DNA from: Sandaracinaceae bacterium
GTDB lineage: Bacteria; Myxococcota_A; Polyangia; Polyangiales; Sandaracinaceae
Assembly (NCBI GenBank): GCA_044220955.1
Contig: JBGAQA010000082.1
Location: forward strand, 1-32,282
Reading direction: 5' to 3'
Length of the DNA stretch: 32,282 nucleotides
Shown one piece after another: positions 15,001 to 21,000 of this stretch (the stretch's first letter is position 1; each line of letters begins with the position of its first letter). A program made the position numbers.

Positions 15001-18000
15001 GGGAGCGCCCAGGGCAGGCGGCCGTCGGTGGGCGGGCGCAGCAGCTCGCGTCCGCCCCAGCAGACCGCCCCGCCGGACGCGCGGATCGCGCAGCTGACGC
15101 CGTCGGCGAGCGCGAGGCTCGTCGCGTCGTCGAGCTGGGCGACCGGTCCCGGCCGCTCCTCGGAGCTCGTGCGTCCGTTGCCGAGCTCGCCCTGGTAGTT
15201 GGCGCCGAGGCACGCGACCTGGCCGGTGGAGAGCAGCGCGCACTGGTGCAGGCCCGTGGCCCCGACCGACGTGATCCGGCCGGGCAGCTCCGTGAAGGCC
15301 ACGTGGGCGCTCAGGTGCTCGAGCGCGCCGAGGCCGACGACGACGACGGGGACCACGCCGAGGATGGCCCAGCCTCGGGTGCGCGCGGGGCCGCGGAGCG
15401 CGAGCAGGGCGATGCTCGCGCCGACGAGGCACGCAGGGATGATCGCGGTGCGGACGAGCCAGGTGACGAGCTCGCCGCGCTCGAAGAAGGCGGCGAGCAA
15501 GAGGTGCATCCCGAGCAGCACCGAGGAGAGCACGACCGCCCAGCCGGCACCTCGGCCGTCGGGACGCCGGACCGCGCGGTGCACGGAGACGGCCCACGAC
15601 ACGAGGAGCGCCAGCGCGCTCGAGCCCGCGACCGCGAGGACGACGACGACGACGAGCGCGATCGCCGCCCCGACGGCGCCGAGCGCGCTTCCGGCGGCTG
15701 CGCACCCCGGAATCGTGGCGAGCGTGATCGCGATCCCGACGGCGGTCCCGGGCTCCGCCTTCCCCCGAACGTCCACCCGACGAGGATAGTCGCCCGGGCG
15801 CCCGCGCGCGTGCTGGACCGACGGACGACGGAATGGACCGAGCGAGCGTGCGCGGACCCGGCGGGGTGCATCGTGTCCTTCGAGGAGAACGCGAACATGA
15901 AGGGACGCATCGACGACGGGGCGCCGCGGAGTCTGCGCGGGCTGAAGGTGGTGGTGACCGGCGGGACGGCCGGGCTGGGACGAGCGCTCGTGGGCGAGCT
16001 GAGCGCGCGCGGCGCGCGGGTCGGCTTCGTGGCGCGGCGGCGCGAGCTCGTCGAGCAGGTGGAGCGCGAGGCGCCGGGCACGGTGGGCGTGGTGGGCGAC
16101 GTCGGGAGCAAGGACGACGTACACCCCATCGCGCTGCAGCTCTCGGCGCGGCTCGGCGGCGTCGACGTGCTCATCCACAACGCGTCGAGCCTCGGACCGG
16201 TGCCGCTCCGGCCGCTGGCCGACACCGAGTGCGAGGACCTCGAGCGCGCCCTCGCGGTGAACGTGCTCGGCCCCTTCCGGCTCACCAAGGCGATGCTCGG
16301 CGCGCTCGTCGCTTCGGCGAGCCGCGGCGTCGGCGGGCTCGTGATCGCGGTCTCGAGCGACGCGGCCGTGACGCCCTATCCGGGGTGGGGCGCGTACGGC
16401 GCGAGCAAGGCGGCGCTCGCGCACCTCTCGGCGATCTGGGACGCCGAGCTCGGAGAGCAGGGCGTGCGCTTCGTCTCGCTCGACCCCGGCGACATGGACA
16501 CGGCGCTGCACGCGCTCGCGATCCCCGATGCCGATCGCGCGAGCCTGAAGCGGCCCGAGACCAGCGCGAGGGAGATCGCCGATCGGATCGCCGAGCGCCT
16601 CCACGCGCCCGCCGCCGCGCTCGCTGTGGAGGCGTCGTGATCCCGGCGAGCGCTCCCGCGCAGCGGCCCGACGACGCGCGCCTGCTCGTCGTCGACGCGG
16701 ACGGCGGCCTCTCGCACCACGCGCGCAGCGAGCTCGCGAGGGTGCTCCGGCCGGGGGACGTCGTGGTCGCGAACGACGCCGCCACGATCCCCGCGAGCCT
16801 GCACGGCGTGCACGTGAGGACCGGGCGCGCGATCGAGGTGCGCCTGGCGGCTCGACGGAGCCTGGACGCTCGTGATCCCTCGCGTTTCCGGGCGGTCCTC
16901 TTCGGCGAGGGGGACCACACGACCCGCACGGAGGAGCGCCCGCTCCCGCCGCCGGTCGCGATCGGCGACGCGCTCGCGCTCGTCGACGGGGCGCTCGGTG
17001 CGCGCGTCTCGGCCATCGAGCACCCGCGCCTGGTCGACCTCGTGCTCGAGGGCGGTGCCGCGCACGTCTGGGAGGCCATCGCGCGCGGCGGCCGCCCCGT
17101 CCAGTACGCTCACGTGCCGACGCCTCTGCGCCTCTGGGACGTGTGGACGCCGATCGCGGGTCCGCCCGTCGCGCTCGAGCCTCCGTCGGCGGGGTTCGTG
17201 CTGGACTTCCGCACGCTCGCGGCGCTGCACGCGCGGGGCATCGAGGTGCACACGCTCACACACGCCGCCGGGCTCTCGTCGACCGGAGATGCCGCGCTCG
17301 ACGCGCGCCTTCCGCTCGACGAGCCCTACGAGATCCCGGCGGCGGCGGCGGTCGCCGTGCTGCGCGCGCGTCGGGCCGGGCGCCGTGTGATCGCGATCGG
17401 CACGACGGTGGTCCGGGCGCTCGAGTCGAGCGCGCGTGCGCACGGGCGGGTCCGGCCCGGACCGGGCCTGGCCACGCTACGCATCGGCCCGCACACGGAC
17501 CTGCGCGTCGTGGACGCGATCGTGTCGGGGACGCACGAGCGCGGGACGAGCCACCACGCGCTGCTCTCGGCGTTCACCGACGAGGAGACGCTCGCGCGCG
17601 CCGACGACGCGCTCGACGCCGCCGCGTACCGCACGCACGAGTTCGGCGACAGCTGTCTCGTCGAGCGTCGGGTCGCGCGCGCGGTGAGCGCGCCATCGGC
17701 GGCGTGAGCCACGCGGGAGCCGTCCGCCCTCGTCGGCCGCTCCGCCCGGCGTCACTCGACGGTGTAGGTCCAGCGCCAGCTCTGCGGGCTCGTCGGGTCG
17801 GCCGCGATCATCTCGAACACCAGGCGCTGCCCGGCGGCCACGTCGTGCGCCTCGGTGCGCAGGAGCCGGCCGTCCCAGTGGGTGTGCGGGTGCCCCGGCC
17901 CCGTCGAGAGCCGCAGCTCGTCGTCGAACGCGAGCTCGAAGTACTGCGCGAACCCGTCGAGCCTCCCGGAGGCGGCGAGCGTCGTCTCGTACGCGAGGCG

Positions 18001-21000
18001 CACGGGCAGCGCGTCGCGCGCCATGGTCCCGAGGTCGAAGCGCAGCACGCTCCGCTCCGGCGCGAGGTTCCGCTCGACGTCGTCGGGTGCGAGCCAGCGC
18101 TTGTCGCGCCCGTCGTGCATCCCCGGCGTCATGCCGGGCCCGGGCGCGAAGCAGGAGAAGTCGAGCCCGTGGAAGCGGTGCTCCCAGCCGTACGGCACCG
18201 TGCGATCCGCGCGCAGCTGCACGGGATCGGCGTAGAGCGCGAAGCGCGCTGGCAGCACGAGCCCGCCGGGCGCGAGCACGCGATCTCGCAGCGACACGAC
18301 GTTCTCGACCATGTCCTCGTCGATGAGGTTGTGTCCGACCTGCTCGTGCAGGATCACGTCGACGGGCACCTTCACCTGGAAGTCCCGGCTGTGCATCGCA
18401 TGAAAGGTGATCGACGACGCGAGGCCGTTGGTGCGGGCGAGCTCGCGCGCGTGCTCGATGACGCCGGTGTGCTCGATCGCGTGCACGTACGCGCCGCGCT
18501 GCGCGGCCAGGCACGCCAGGACGCCGCTGCCCGTTCCCAGGTCGACCACCGTCATCCCCGGCTGCACGTAGCGATCGATCGCGCGGGCATACGCGCGCAT
18601 CCGCACGCGGTCTGCGAGCATCCCGTCGTGCCAGGCGATGTTCTTGAACCCGTCGCGGTTGCTCGCGCGGTACGCCTCGCGCCGCACGGCAGGCACGCTG
18701 CGGATCGCGCGGATGGTCCGCCGCGCCGCCTCGACCGCTGCGCTCTCCAGCCTGCGCAGGCCCCGGGAGGCGATCAACACCCGCTCGCGGGGAGCGGGCG
18801 GGCCGCCATGAGGACGGTCCGGTCGAGGCGCGAGTGGCTCATGGCGCGATCAGAGCGCGGCCCGGGGGCGGGCGCAACCGGCTCCGCTCACACACGGGCG
18901 ATCCGCTAGGATTCCTCGCCGATGTCGCTCACCGACGCCCAGCGCGAGGCCGCGCTGTCCCTCCGCGCCTCGCTGCTCGCCGACACGATGCCGCCCGACG
19001 CGTTTCGCGCGGCGCTCACCCGCATCCCCTCGCAGCTGCGCGACGCGTGGCTCGACCTCGTGCTCGACACGGCAGAGATCCCGCCGGACGACGACGACCT
19101 GCCGCGGGGGTGCGCGCCCTACCTGCCGTGCTCGGTCGACGCGATCCTCGCCATGATCGACCACGCGCGCGTGGAGAGCCGGGACGTGTTCGTGGACGTG
19201 GGCGCCGGGGTCGGGCGGGCGGCGATCCTCACGCACCTGCTCACGGGCGCGGCGGCGATCGGGATCGAGATCCAGGCGCGGCTGGTGTCCGCCGCCCGCG
19301 AGCGGCGCGCGCTCCTCAACCTCCGCAGGTTCGGCGTCGTGCACGGCGACGCCACCGAGCTCACCGGCTACGTCCCGATCGGCTCGGTCTTCTTCCTCTA
19401 CTGCCCCTTCAGCGGCGAGCGCCTCGAGAAGGTGCTCGACGAGCTCGAGCCCATCGCGCGCAGGAGGACGATCCGCGTCTGCTGCGTCGGGATGCCCGCG
19501 CCCGAGCGCCCCTGGCTGCGCCCGATCGCGACGCACGAGGGAGAGCTCGCGGTGTACCGGAGCACCTGCCTCGAGGACGCACCGTCGCCGTGAAGGGTGC
19601 CGTCGCCGTGGCGTTCGTCCGCGCGGCGCTCGTGCTGCTCGTCCTCGGCGGCACGCTCGGCGTGGCGCTCGACGCCTGGCACGTCGCGAGCGGCACCACG
19701 CGCTACGCGCACGCGTGGACGTTCGGCATCGCGACCTGGACGATCCCCCTGTTCGCGTGCGCGGGCGTGGCCGTGGGGCTCGCGCCCGTCGCGCGCGAGC
19801 GGGCGCTCGGCCGAGTGCTCCGGCCCGCGAGCCCCGGTCGTGTGGCCATCGCGATGGGCCTCTTCGTGCTCGCCTACCTCGTCACCGGCGTGCTGCGCGG
19901 CGCGACGTGCGCGGCGGCGCTCGCGCTGCTCGCGCTGGCGATCTACGCCGTGGGCGATCGTCCACCGCCCGGCGTCGCGATCGCGCACGCGGCCGGAGCG
20001 GGGATCGGCGGCGCGCTCGTCGAGATGACGCTCGTCCACGTCGGCGCGTTCTTCCACACGGACGACCGCTTCTTCGGCGTCGCGCCCTGGCTGCCGCTGC
20101 TCTACGCGTGCGCGTCCCTCGCGCTCACCGCGCTCGCACGTGCGCTCGTCACGGGATCGGGAGCGTACGGCCCCGCGCCCCACCCGTCCGCCACGCCGAC
20201 GCGCACGGCGTGACGGTGTCGATCGGAACCGAGCTCGCTCCGGCGAAGACGATCGTGCGATGAGACGACTCGCGCGAGCCAGCGCGCCAGGGTAAGGCCT
20301 CGTCATGCGCGTGACCGGCTGGCTGGCGCTCTCTGCCTTCGCGCTCCTGGCGCTCGAGACCGCGTGCGGGCCGCTCGCCACGCCCGACGACGGCACGCTC
20401 GTCGGGAACTTCACGATCGTCGCGACCCTGCAGTCGAACTCGTGCGCTCCCGGCTACAACCCCGCCACGCCCACCACGTTCCGCGCGAGCGTGCACGCGA
20501 GCGGCGGCAGCGCGACGTGGTCCGCGGCAGGATCGAGCGTCACCGGCACCGCGTCGGGCAGCTCGATCCACGTCGTCGCGCACGCCGCGACGAGCCCGTA
20601 CACGAACTGCGTCATCGACCAGACCGAGACCATCGACGCGACGTACGTGATCACGCCCGCCGACTCGGGCACGCCCGACGCGGGCGCCCACTCGGCCACC
20701 ATCACGGGAACGGACAGCGTGACGCTCTCGACCAGCTCCGGGCCGCCGTGCCTGCCGCTCTTGATCGTGAACGGCGGCGCGTACCCGATGTTTCCGTGCA
20801 CCGCGACGTTCACGTTCACCGGCACGACGAGCTGATCGTCGAGTCCTGCGCGTCGCCTCGGAATCGTGCTCAGATGGCGCGGTGACGGAGAAGAAGCCGG
20901 CCAAGGCCGCTGGCGTGCACATTCACTCGACCGGCGGCGCCGACGCGGCCATCGTCGATGACCTGCGCCCGAAGGGAAGGCGGCGTGCTGGACGCGCCGT

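Follow-up and report, generated by a model that had tools for sequence, protein, structure and literature searches.

Homologues of eukaryotic protein arginine methyltransferases (PRMTs) have already been described in bacteria by comparative genomics (PMC3417536; PMC10117894), whereas the survey had met no paper on a bacterial PRMT among those it listed. [quoted passage not shown] TvaG has been presented as a putative histidine methyltransferase (10.1101/2020.08.21.260323), and the product of SznE is given as N-omega-methyl-L-arginine (PMC11705231). Our literature search found no experimental study of bacterial PRMT homologues and no activity or substrate data for members of the family described here. 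That family is represented by g06055, a gene within a 32,282-nucleotide stretch of a Sandaracinaceae contig (JBGAQA010000082.1), hereafter referred to as the window.

The g06055 open reading frame lies at 17752-18780 on the reverse strand, begins with GTG and encodes a PRMT-fold, SAM-dependent methyltransferase of 342 aa. GC3 is 0.95 (0.98 for its neighbor, g06056), and codon-position GC is typical of real genes in a window of 73% GC. The gene is under purifying selection, with dN/dS values of 0.17 against the copy in the congener G143 and 0.16 against that on metagenome contig L132. A Rossmann domain (about residues 46-177) is followed by a beta-barrel with an inserted arm (about residues 178-342). 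Pfam assigns Methyltransf_25 and its kin to residues 66-181 and PRMT_C to residues 236-309 (9.8e-10; 39.1 bits, cut-off 27). The PRMT_C match spans only positions 49-125 of the 164 in the profile, and the dimerisation arm is therefore divergent. A phmmer search of the PDB, taken as the equivalent of the Swiss-Prot table used in the survey, returned 64 sequences at E<=1e-3, of which the best 60 are all eukaryotic PRMTs; PRMT6 ranks first (1.5e-27, 99.7 bits, query 43-308). A profile built from the 31-member family matched solved PRMTs at E 1.1e-53 over positions 21-310 of 334, and all PDB matches listed were PRMTs. The AF2 model (pLDDT 89.8) was most similar in Foldseek to PRMT6/1/2/3/8/CARM1 (TM 0.70-0.77, 292-351 columns), with 27-29% identity to solved eukaryotic PRMTs in the fold alignment. 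Open reading frame, Pfam, phmmer and predicted fold thus agree with the initial description of a PRMT-type protein with a C-terminal beta-barrel and a THW loop, and they support the identification of g06055 as a full-length PRMT-type enzyme bearing the type I catalytic signature.

This signature can be followed residue by residue. Motif I, the SAM-binding glycine loop, reads VVDLGTGSG (residues 78-86; 18523-18549, reverse strand) and aligns with VLDVGAGTG of PRMT6; D80, G82, G84 and G86 are unchanged in all 31 family members, and D57 and R60 are likewise invariant. The double-E loop, HEQVGHNLIDEDM (residues 145-157; 18310-18348, reverse strand), contains glutamates E146 and E155 and aligns with SEWMGYGLLHESM of PRMT6. 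The THW loop consists of T300, H301 and W302 (17875-17883, reverse strand) within the word PHTHWDG (298-304), and aligns with ATHW of PRMT6. Conservation across the 31 members is at least 90% for E146, Q147, E155 and W302, while H301 varies, so that the family word is T-x-W. Eukaryotic type I PRMTs carry the N-terminal word YFxxY, which in the g06055 family has shrunk to a single conserved phenylalanine, F45. M54 and M157 occupy positions that we take to favor asymmetric, type I products. In an alignment of 11 sequences, both double-E glutamates are present in 6/6 members of the g06055 family and are missing from 2/5 distant PRMT-like genes, namely one in a Streptomyces cluster with YcaO, flavoprotein and HopA1 genes (L066) and one in a Desulfobacterales Asn-synthase cluster (L064), both of them peptide-product clusters.

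These residues bear on whether the PRMT fold of g06055 might serve a non-arginine acceptor, such as histidine, lysine or a protein N-terminus. The reduction of YFxxY and the variability of H301 would fit such an acceptor, as would the L066 gene, which, judging from the gene content of its thioamitide-like cluster, is probably the counterpart of the putative histidine methyltransferase TvaG (10.1101/2020.08.21.260323). However, the arginine-loop glutamates and the methionines that follow H51 and E155 are kept in the g06055 family and not in L066 or L064, and we consider a non-arginine acceptor improbable.

The survey had listed only eukaryotic matches, but the nearest relatives of g06055 are prokaryotic. 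They share 35-88% identity with it and come from Myxococcota, Verrucomicrobiota, Actinomycetota, Alphaproteobacteria, Planctomycetota and one haloarchaeon. Full-length relatives at 35-44% occur in Opitutaceae, Aquibaculum arenosum, Pseudomonadales, Acidimicrobiaceae, Salinarchaeum and Planctomycetaceae. The search for relatives gave 59 matches down to about 30% identity, 20 of which bear JGI PRMT names, and 126 50%-clusters match at E<=1e-30. At E<=1e-10, relatives are found in one of the five congeners searched, 6/31 genomes of the taxonomic family and 74/301 of the order. The one congener, G143, has its PRMT gene (88% identity) at a different site. No solved eukaryotic PRMT comes as close to g06055 as these prokaryotic proteins do, which makes it unlikely that the gene was transferred recently from a eukaryote. 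A broader proposal, that g06055 was either recently acquired from a eukaryote or acts as an effector on proteins of a eukaryotic host or prey, e.g. histones, could draw on the patchy distribution just given, on the exclusively eukaryotic origin of the solved relatives and on the Legionella genes reported to cluster with eukaryotic ones (PMC10117894). It is nevertheless very improbable: identity is 27-29% to solved eukaryotic PRMTs versus 35-88% to prokaryotic relatives from six phyla and from an archaeon; 50%-clusters, which carry no taxon labels, reach 117 bits or more in at least 150 cases, versus 99.7 bits for the best solved eukaryotic PRMT; the GC3 of 0.95 is native to the host genome; and the carriers are free-living environmental taxa.

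As initially described, g06055 and g06056 are divergent neighbors; re-derivation of both reading frames placed them 141 bp apart, and no sigma-70-type promoter match was found in this intergenic region (18781-18921). Convergent with g06055 is queA, encoding tRNA ribosyltransferase-isomerase (16610-17707, forward strand, start approximate), which was assigned from a Queuosine_synth match (Pfam, 1.5e-40) to residues 272-610 of the ORF at 15833-17707 and is conserved, with DNA matches in 5/5 congeners. Directly 3' of g06056 lies a gene for a small hydrophobic protein (19596-20213, forward strand), recognized by its open frame and GC3 phase plot, to which no Pfam family could be assigned. In congeners G175 and G143 the homologue of this gene comes directly after queA, and the intervening stretch of about 1.95 kb with g06055 and g06056 (17668-19619) is absent. 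By blastn, contig C66 of G175 corresponds to window positions 15814-17667, followed by 51 bp, then 19620-20165, then 21649 onward, and contig C23 of G143 corresponds to the window up to 17722, followed by 220 bp and then 19617-20140. No flanking repeats or mobile-element genes were found around the stretch. Independent sludge metagenome contigs span the queA-PRMT, PRMT-g06056 and g06056-next gene junctions at identities of at least 99%, which shows that the gene order did not arise by chimeric assembly.

The second gene, g06056 (18922-19593, forward strand), has an ATG start and encodes a class I methyltransferase of 223 aa from a bacterial 'DOT1-domain' family. DOT1 is its best Pfam match (2.5e-6; 27.6 bits, cut-off 23), on residues 72-139 and profile positions 28-98 of 205, which is the SAM-binding third of the profile only. 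The family alignment and the predicted structure show a three-helix N-terminal extension, the motif GCxPYLPC and four invariant cysteines (C64, C70, C161 and C187). A PDB search with the family profile matched 5bxy (2.6e-12), T. brucei DOT1A (1.6e-5) and aKMT (4.1e-5). With the AF2 model (pLDDT 91), Foldseek ranked 5bxy, aKMT and Dot1L at the top and also listed 9ne1, 'bacterial DOT1L'; TM on the query was just 0.49-0.58, with generic class I methyltransferases next at nearly equal E-values. The matching Atlas clusters are called 'putative DOT1 domain-containing protein' and are mostly from Myxococcota. The bacterial DOT1-domain family that includes g06056 is thus rich in Myxococcota, and 5BXY and archaeal aKMT stand nearest to it. 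The initial description of g06056 as Dot1-like holds for its catalytic core, but the supposed rarity of DOT1-like proteins in the bacterial family does not, as relatives at E<=1e-5 occur in 14/31 of its genomes (60/301 in the order).

The survey's central proposal was that g06055 (an arginine writer) and g06056 (a Dot1-like lysine writer) form one eukaryote-type system that modifies DNA- or RNA-binding proteins in the manner of chromatin. Their close divergent adjacency is in keeping with this, both genes fall within the stretch missing from G175 and G143, which leaves room for co-acquisition, and solved relatives of g06056 include aKMT, reported to methylate archaeal chromatin proteins (PMC4639711). 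Comparison with other genomes points the other way. Relatives of the two genes are adjacent in 0/21 other genomes that hold both, lying on different contigs in 20 and 617 kb apart in G299, although in G016 and G300 the PRMT match is at a contig end and adjacency is not strictly excluded. No g06056 was found beside the PRMT genes of close relatives at G143/L130, at L131, where a TPR gene is directly upstream, or on the short metagenome contigs L132 and L133; the sole g06056-like match in G143 has 31% identity and is on a contig other than that of the PRMT gene. No conserved neighbor was found for g06056, nor for g06055 across 12 loci of its family, and the window has no gene for a DNA- or RNA-binding substrate or nucleoid protein beside the pair. 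The adjacency is a local accident, particular to one genome among those examined, and a two-writer system appears distinctly improbable.

Genomic context also bears on the nature of the substrate. Bacterial PRMT-fold enzymes acting on peptides and SznE acting on free L-arginine mean that a protein substrate for g06055 is not guaranteed, and the enzyme might instead modify a small molecule, such as free arginine or another guanidino compound, or else a peptide natural product. Besides the operons of the sister groups (PMC3417536) and the SznE product (PMC11705231), several distant PRMT-like genes speak for this possibility: that of L066 has YcaO, flavoprotein, APH, HopA1, PhyH and papain-like protease genes as neighbors, that of L064 adjoins Asn synthase and NTP_transf_5 genes, that of L063 adjoins an amine oxidase gene, and in one relative of 669 aa NTP_transf_5 is fused to the PRMT-like part. 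Against it, the 12 g06055-family loci share no common neighbor, and the 75 flanking ORFs of 11 loci include no NRPS, PKS, YcaO or other RiPP genes. In the window, g06055 is accompanied by queA, an RCC1-like repeat protein, a GNAT protein and unassigned ORFs, and the cluster-embedded relatives compared, L066 and L064, have lost the double-E pair that the g06055 family keeps. We therefore regard this alternative as rather unlikely.

Taken together, these results lead us to favor, with moderate confidence, the interpretation that g06055 encodes a functional cytosolic enzyme with an arginine substrate, a stand-alone representative of a sparse prokaryotic PRMT branch, and that its neighbor is independent. 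Its most likely function would be arginine (guanidino) N-methylation of endogenous proteins or peptides. SAM would be held in the Rossmann domain by motif I, E103 and R60, and the guanidinium of the substrate would be gripped between E146 and E155 beneath the THW loop of the beta-barrel. Methyl groups would then pass to one of the arginine's terminal nitrogens, with M54 and M157 presumably favoring asymmetric, type I products. The arginine most likely belongs to an endogenous protein or peptide, or to a few of them, and no gene neighborhood singles one out. g06056 would encode a methyltransferase of the aKMT/5BXY/Dot1-core kind that is independent of g06055 and adjoins it in a single lineage only.

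In comparison with known systems, g06055 resembles the eukaryotic type I PRMTs (PRMT6, PRMT1/Hmt1, PRMT8, PRMT3 and PRMT2) in two-domain architecture over nearly its whole length, sharing motif I, the post-I glutamate, the double-E loop, THW and the beta-barrel. It differs from them in its prokaryotic host, in an arginine-rich helical extension (residues 2-45) that replaces the eukaryotic N-terminal modules, in the reduction of YFxxY to F45, in its divergent arm and in the variable THW histidine of its family. With the PRMT-like peptide methylases of secondary metabolism described by Aravind and colleagues (PMC3417536), and with the thioamitide TvaG-type methyltransferase, it shares a fold of PrmA-type Rossmann domain plus PRMT_C at 26-31% identity; those genes occur in RiPP or amine-oxidase contexts and 2/5 do not have the double-E pair, whereas the g06055 family keeps the pair and shows no such context in 12 loci. 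SznE/StzE of streptozotocin biosynthesis, compared by description only, carries out SAM-dependent guanidino-N methylation of arginine (PMC11705231), as proposed for g06055, but its substrate is free L-arginine and its gene belongs to a biosynthetic cluster, and no SznF-like partner is near g06055 in the window. For its part, g06056 is without the nucleosome-binding parts of Dot1/DOT1L; it has the lead-in (V)PY(V/L)P(T/C) and the core that binds SAM in common with 5BXY (the Salinibacter ruber 'RNA methyltransferase'), aKMT/aKMT4 and the Dot1/DOT1L core, and is set apart from 5BXY, aKMT and Dot1L by its own N-terminal three-helix part and invariant cysteines.

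The two methyltransferase genes of the survey's finding are present and show the codon pattern of real genes, dominated by GC at third positions (GC3 of 0.95 for g06055 and 0.98 for g06056) in a window of 73% GC. g06055 (P0001, PRMT-like, 342 aa) is encoded at 17752-18780 (-) and g06056 (P0002, Dot1-like, 223 aa) at 18922-19593 (+), in divergent orientation with a gap of 141 bp. Downstream of g06055 and convergent with it lies queA, with its stop at 17707, 44 bp from the g06055 stop, and a gene for a small hydrophobic protein (~19596-20213) directly follows g06056. Since each of the three junctions around the pair is spanned by sludge metagenome contigs from other studies at at least 99% identity, the arrangement is genuine and was not produced by assembly. 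A 202-nt contig from one sludge metatranscriptome library (X20) matches 17797-17998, inside g06055, with zero differences; it weakly hints at transcription of g06055, with DNA carry-over as a possible source.

Farther neighbors in the window encode an RCC1-like repeat protein, a GNAT acetyltransferase and an ORF6N protein. The first of these, a 738-aa ORF upstream of queA (14388-16604, -), resembles RCC1-like repeats weakly, at 7.5e-9 and well short of the cut-off, and its DNA is only partly conserved among congeners. The ORF6N-domain protein (23384-23911, +) matches Pfam at 1.3e-34 and, at 5.5e-55, PDC-S05, one of the candidate defence families in PADLOC. Intergenic microsatellites with 6- or 12-nt GA/GC-rich units occur at 96-232, 6579-6735, 7956-8093, 25673-25735 and 25836-25929 (units CGAGAG x22, GGGCGA x26, GAGAGCGAGGTC x11.6, GCGAGA x10.5 and CGAGGG x15.7); across the genome, over-long ORFs carry such arrays at their 5' ends, where they read as 'peptides' of RG/RE/ES repeats.

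In Pfam, g06055 matches PRMT_C at 39.1 bits (cut-off 27; residues 236-309) and class I methyltransferase domains at residues 66-181; neither g06055 nor g06056 scores above the cut-off of any NCBIfam model. When g06055 was compared with all PDB sequences, all 60 matches listed were eukaryotic PRMTs, the best being PRMT6 (1.5e-27, residues 43-308); with a profile of 31 relatives the match to PDB PRMTs rises to 1.1e-53 and spans positions 21-310 of the 334 in the profile. Motif names and residue roles are given as for PRMT1. Motif I (VVDLGTGSG, 78-86) pairs with that of PRMT6 (VLDVGxGxG type), marking a Rossmann SAM-binding domain, and the post-I acidic residue (A-I-E103) aligns to the ribose-binding glutamate of PRMT6. 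Within the double-E loop (H-E146-Q-V-G-H-N-L-I-D-E155-D-M), E146 and E155 align to both PRMT6 SEWMGYGLLHESM glutamates, and T300-H301-W302 aligns to the PRMT6 THW loop. Across the 31 aligned relatives, D57, R60 and the motif I residues D80, G82, G84 and G86 are invariant, and E146, Q147, E155 and W302 are conserved in at least 90% of members; T-x-W alone is kept of the THW word, H301 being variable. Of the N-terminal YFxxY word of eukaryotic type I PRMTs, F45 alone is left in g06055 and in the family alignment. M54 (H-D-G-M-L) and M157 (E-D-M) are present and aligned to PRMT6, and two methionines at these positions presumably favor asymmetric dimethylation.

The C-terminal beta-barrel is indicated by the PRMT_C match together with AlphaFold2 strands over residues 179-341 and Foldseek alignments to PRMTs. 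The AlphaFold2 model was built on the alignment of 31 relatives (mean pLDDT 89.8), and Foldseek matched it to PRMT6, PRMT1, PRMT2, PRMT3, PRMT8 and CARM1 with TM scores of 0.70-0.77 over 292-351 columns. Residues ~190-226, outside the Pfam PRMT_C match, align to the PRMT6 dimerisation arm, though with a lower pLDDT of 75-82. The gene is the only PRMT_C gene of its genome, and its dN/dS is 0.17 against the 88% identical copy of the congener G143 and 0.16 against a metagenome copy. The PADLOC 'mad2' matches of both g06055 and g06056 are confined to the generic SAM-binding part and give no evidence for a defence role.

A word-indexed search returned 59 relatives of g06055 with identities from 87% to ~30%, 20 of which carry a JGI name of PRMT type. 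Full-length relatives with 35-44% identity in the species-genome collection belong to Opitutaceae, Aquibaculum arenosum CAU 1616 (a cultured isolate, 42% identical), a Pseudomonadales MAG, Acidimicrobiaceae, a Salinarchaeum MAG and Planctomycetaceae. An exhaustive search of 50%-identity clusters counted 3997 matches at E<=1e-10, of which 126 pass E<=1e-30; the best 150 clusters, which come without taxon labels, each score at least 117 bits against g06055, whereas the highest-scoring solved eukaryotic PRMT reaches 99.7 bits. A recent transfer of the gene from a eukaryote to a bacterium is unlikely, as its closest relatives are prokaryotic. Within the order, PRMT-like matches at E<=1e-10 were found in 74 of 301 genomes, including one of the five other congeners searched and six of 31 family genomes, and mostly represent distant paralogous groups with 26-35% identity. 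Twelve longer relatives were checked for fusion partners; one is an NTP_transf_5 fusion and one has a second methyltransferase domain, the others being uninformative.

Some distant PRMT-like genes have neighbors that point to peptide products. In Streptomyces mutomycini (locus L066), such a gene lies among those for a flavoprotein, YcaO, APH, HopA1, a PhyH dioxygenase and a papain-like protease; from this gene content we infer a thioamitide-like set of which the PRMT-like gene is the methyltransferase. According to a preprint, the thioamitide-type methyltransferase is thought to methylate histidine (10.1101/2020.08.21.260323). In a Desulfobacterales MAG (L064) the PRMT-like gene is beside an asparagine-synthase homologue and an NTP_transf_5 protein, and in Plectonema (L063) it is near an amine oxidase gene that is itself next to an ISL3 transposase. 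These three contexts agree with the account in PMC3417536, in which the PRMT relatives of bacteria belong to operons for peptide secondary metabolites and eukaryotic PRMTs derived from that radiation.

The g06055 family differs from these cluster-embedded relatives at the double-E loop: in a joint alignment both glutamates are gone in the Streptomyces and Desulfobacterales proteins, whereas they are kept in six of six g06055-family members. This retention supports, rather than proves, a guanidinium acceptor, and g06055 is probably an arginine methyltransferase. For SznE, a characterised arginine-guanidino methyltransferase, the acceptor is free arginine (PMC11705231). Twelve loci of the g06055 family have no shared neighbor besides the PRMT gene itself, and Pfam scans of 75 flanking ORFs at 11 of the family's loci detected no NRPS, PKS or RiPP genes; for these reasons g06055 looks like a stand-alone enzyme, with a gene context that gives no lead to its substrate. 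The flanking ORFs are unrelated to one another (rRNA methylases, FtsY, topoisomerase IV, transporters and kinases).

A search of the genome for RGG-type substrates gave 28 candidates among 4731 coding-like ORFs. The majority come from read-through of hexanucleotide microsatellites at the 5' ends of ORFs, or from conserved motifs that we take for those of Obg and DnaJ. The ribosomal protein uS2 (G000:C6:12916-13947, locus L137) has a real C-terminal glycine-arginine tail (RRGGGGGGPRGGGGRGPRGGGG...). The tail does not correlate with the PRMT gene, as the alignment reaches the protein end also in congeners that have no PRMT gene. A bolder and rather doubtful reading is that the g06055 family might be a free-living prokaryotic PRMT of the lineage ancestral to eukaryotic type I PRMTs, asymmetrically dimethylating arginine-glycine-rich tails of housekeeping RNA-associated proteins, with the RGG-rich uS2 tail as one candidate in this genome. 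Were it true, enzymatic arginine methylation of cellular proteins would be older than eukaryotes, and cultured carriers, Aquibaculum arenosum among them, would make it accessible to study.

The methylation of arginine in proteins counts as a signaling and chromatin mark of eukaryotes, and to our knowledge the enzymes behind scattered reports of bacterial methyl-arginine are largely unknown. The survey had found no paper on a bacterial PRMT; our literature search likewise found no experimentally studied one, but comparative-genomic descriptions exist (PMC3417536), and a review (PMC10117894) refers to predicted PRMTs of Legionella. The assignment of g06055 to a known prokaryotic PRMT branch, a class predicted in bacteria before, is sound. 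Its family represents a stand-alone prokaryotic PRMT, catalytically complete as far as residues can tell, with a cultured carrier in A. arenosum CAU 1616, and offers a concrete test enzyme and an outgroup for the question of eukaryotic PRMT origin.

The proposal that g06055 and g06056 form a chromatin-style system of two eukaryote-type writers is unsupported, as relatives of the two genes are adjacent in none of the 21 other genomes that have both. They are on different contigs in 20 of these and 617 kb apart in the remaining one (G299), with two of the 21 PRMT matches at contig ends, where adjacency is not strictly excluded. Of the 301 genomes of the order, 60 have a relative of g06056, in many of them at 50-56% identity. 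The closest PRMT copies have different contexts: one on G143:C137, 99.95% identical to metagenome contig L130; one on L133, whose downstream sequence is common with G143:C137; and one on L131, where the PRMT gene directly follows a homologue of the window's TPR gene (11945-12829). Thus, at none of these close-relative loci, nor on the short contig L132, does g06056 adjoin the PRMT gene.

One observation runs counter to this picture. Between queA and the homologue of 19620-20165 lie 51 bp in the congener G175 and 220 bp in the congener G143, so the 1.95 kb with both methyltransferase genes is a single indel at this site. A second indel relative to the same genomes covers 20166-21648, part of which (~20361-20842) is found elsewhere in both; it holds an ORF with a hydrophobic, lipoprotein-like N-terminus (20296-20835) and a 249-aa ORF of no family. 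The 1.95-kb stretch has no flanking repeats beyond short GC-rich ones at chance level and no integrase or transposase genes; no promoter match was found around it, and one terminator-like site lies inside g06056. In G131 and G127 the same interval is filled by ~6 kb of other DNA. We read the site as a variable spot that gathered two unrelated genes, although their co-acquisition in one indel is possible. The finding cautions against inferring a system from adjacency, the Dot1-like neighbor belonging to a separate, Myxococcota-rich family.

In an alignment of 12 g06056-family sequences, mean column identity is 57%, the GCxPYLPC lead-in is invariant, and further family words are the SAM loop DVFVDVGAGxGR and FFLYCPF. 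C64, C70, C161 and C187 are invariant in all 12 and may form a metal site. Fifteen loci of the family have no conserved neighbors. The ESM Atlas groups g06056 with clusters that are rich in Myxococcota and automatically named 'putative DOT1 domain-containing protein', with PF08123 in 45-65% of the members of the nearest clusters, and the protein passes the Pfam DOT1 gathering threshold (27.6 bits vs 23). The Dot1 label given to it in the survey holds for the core shared by Dot1 and aKMT and fails for a full-length DOT1 domain: only positions 28-98 of the 205-position Pfam profile are matched, the profile match to solved Dot1 is restricted to query positions 68-131, and TM reaches 0.31-0.46 when normalised to the length of Dot1L. 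A bacterial and archaeal DOT1 clade has been reported (PMC10117894).

Comparison with solved structures brings g06056 nearer to small methyltransferases. Its family profile scored 2.6e-12 against 5BXY, a Salinibacter ruber 'RNA methyltransferase' from structural genomics, ahead of Trypanosoma DOT1A (1.6e-5) and Sulfolobus aKMT (4.1e-5). For the g06056 model (pLDDT 91), 5BXY and aKMT take the first four Foldseek ranks (TM on target 0.70-0.75), followed by Dot1L, with the 2026 'bacterial DOT1L' entry 9ne1 also among the matches; on the query, TM does not exceed 0.49-0.58, and generic methyltransferases are close behind. This likeness and the partial DOT1 match together place g06056 with the Dot1/aKMT core and outside full Dot1 membership. 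As described in PMC4639711, aKMT4 is a Dot1-family core without substrate-recognition domains that methylates Cren7, Sul7d and other proteins. Like the small methyltransferases of the aKMT/5BXY type, g06056 has a PY(V/L)P lead-in and a compact class I core of ~160 aa, and vPYvPtP of 5BXY aligns to CvPYlPCp of the g06056 family.
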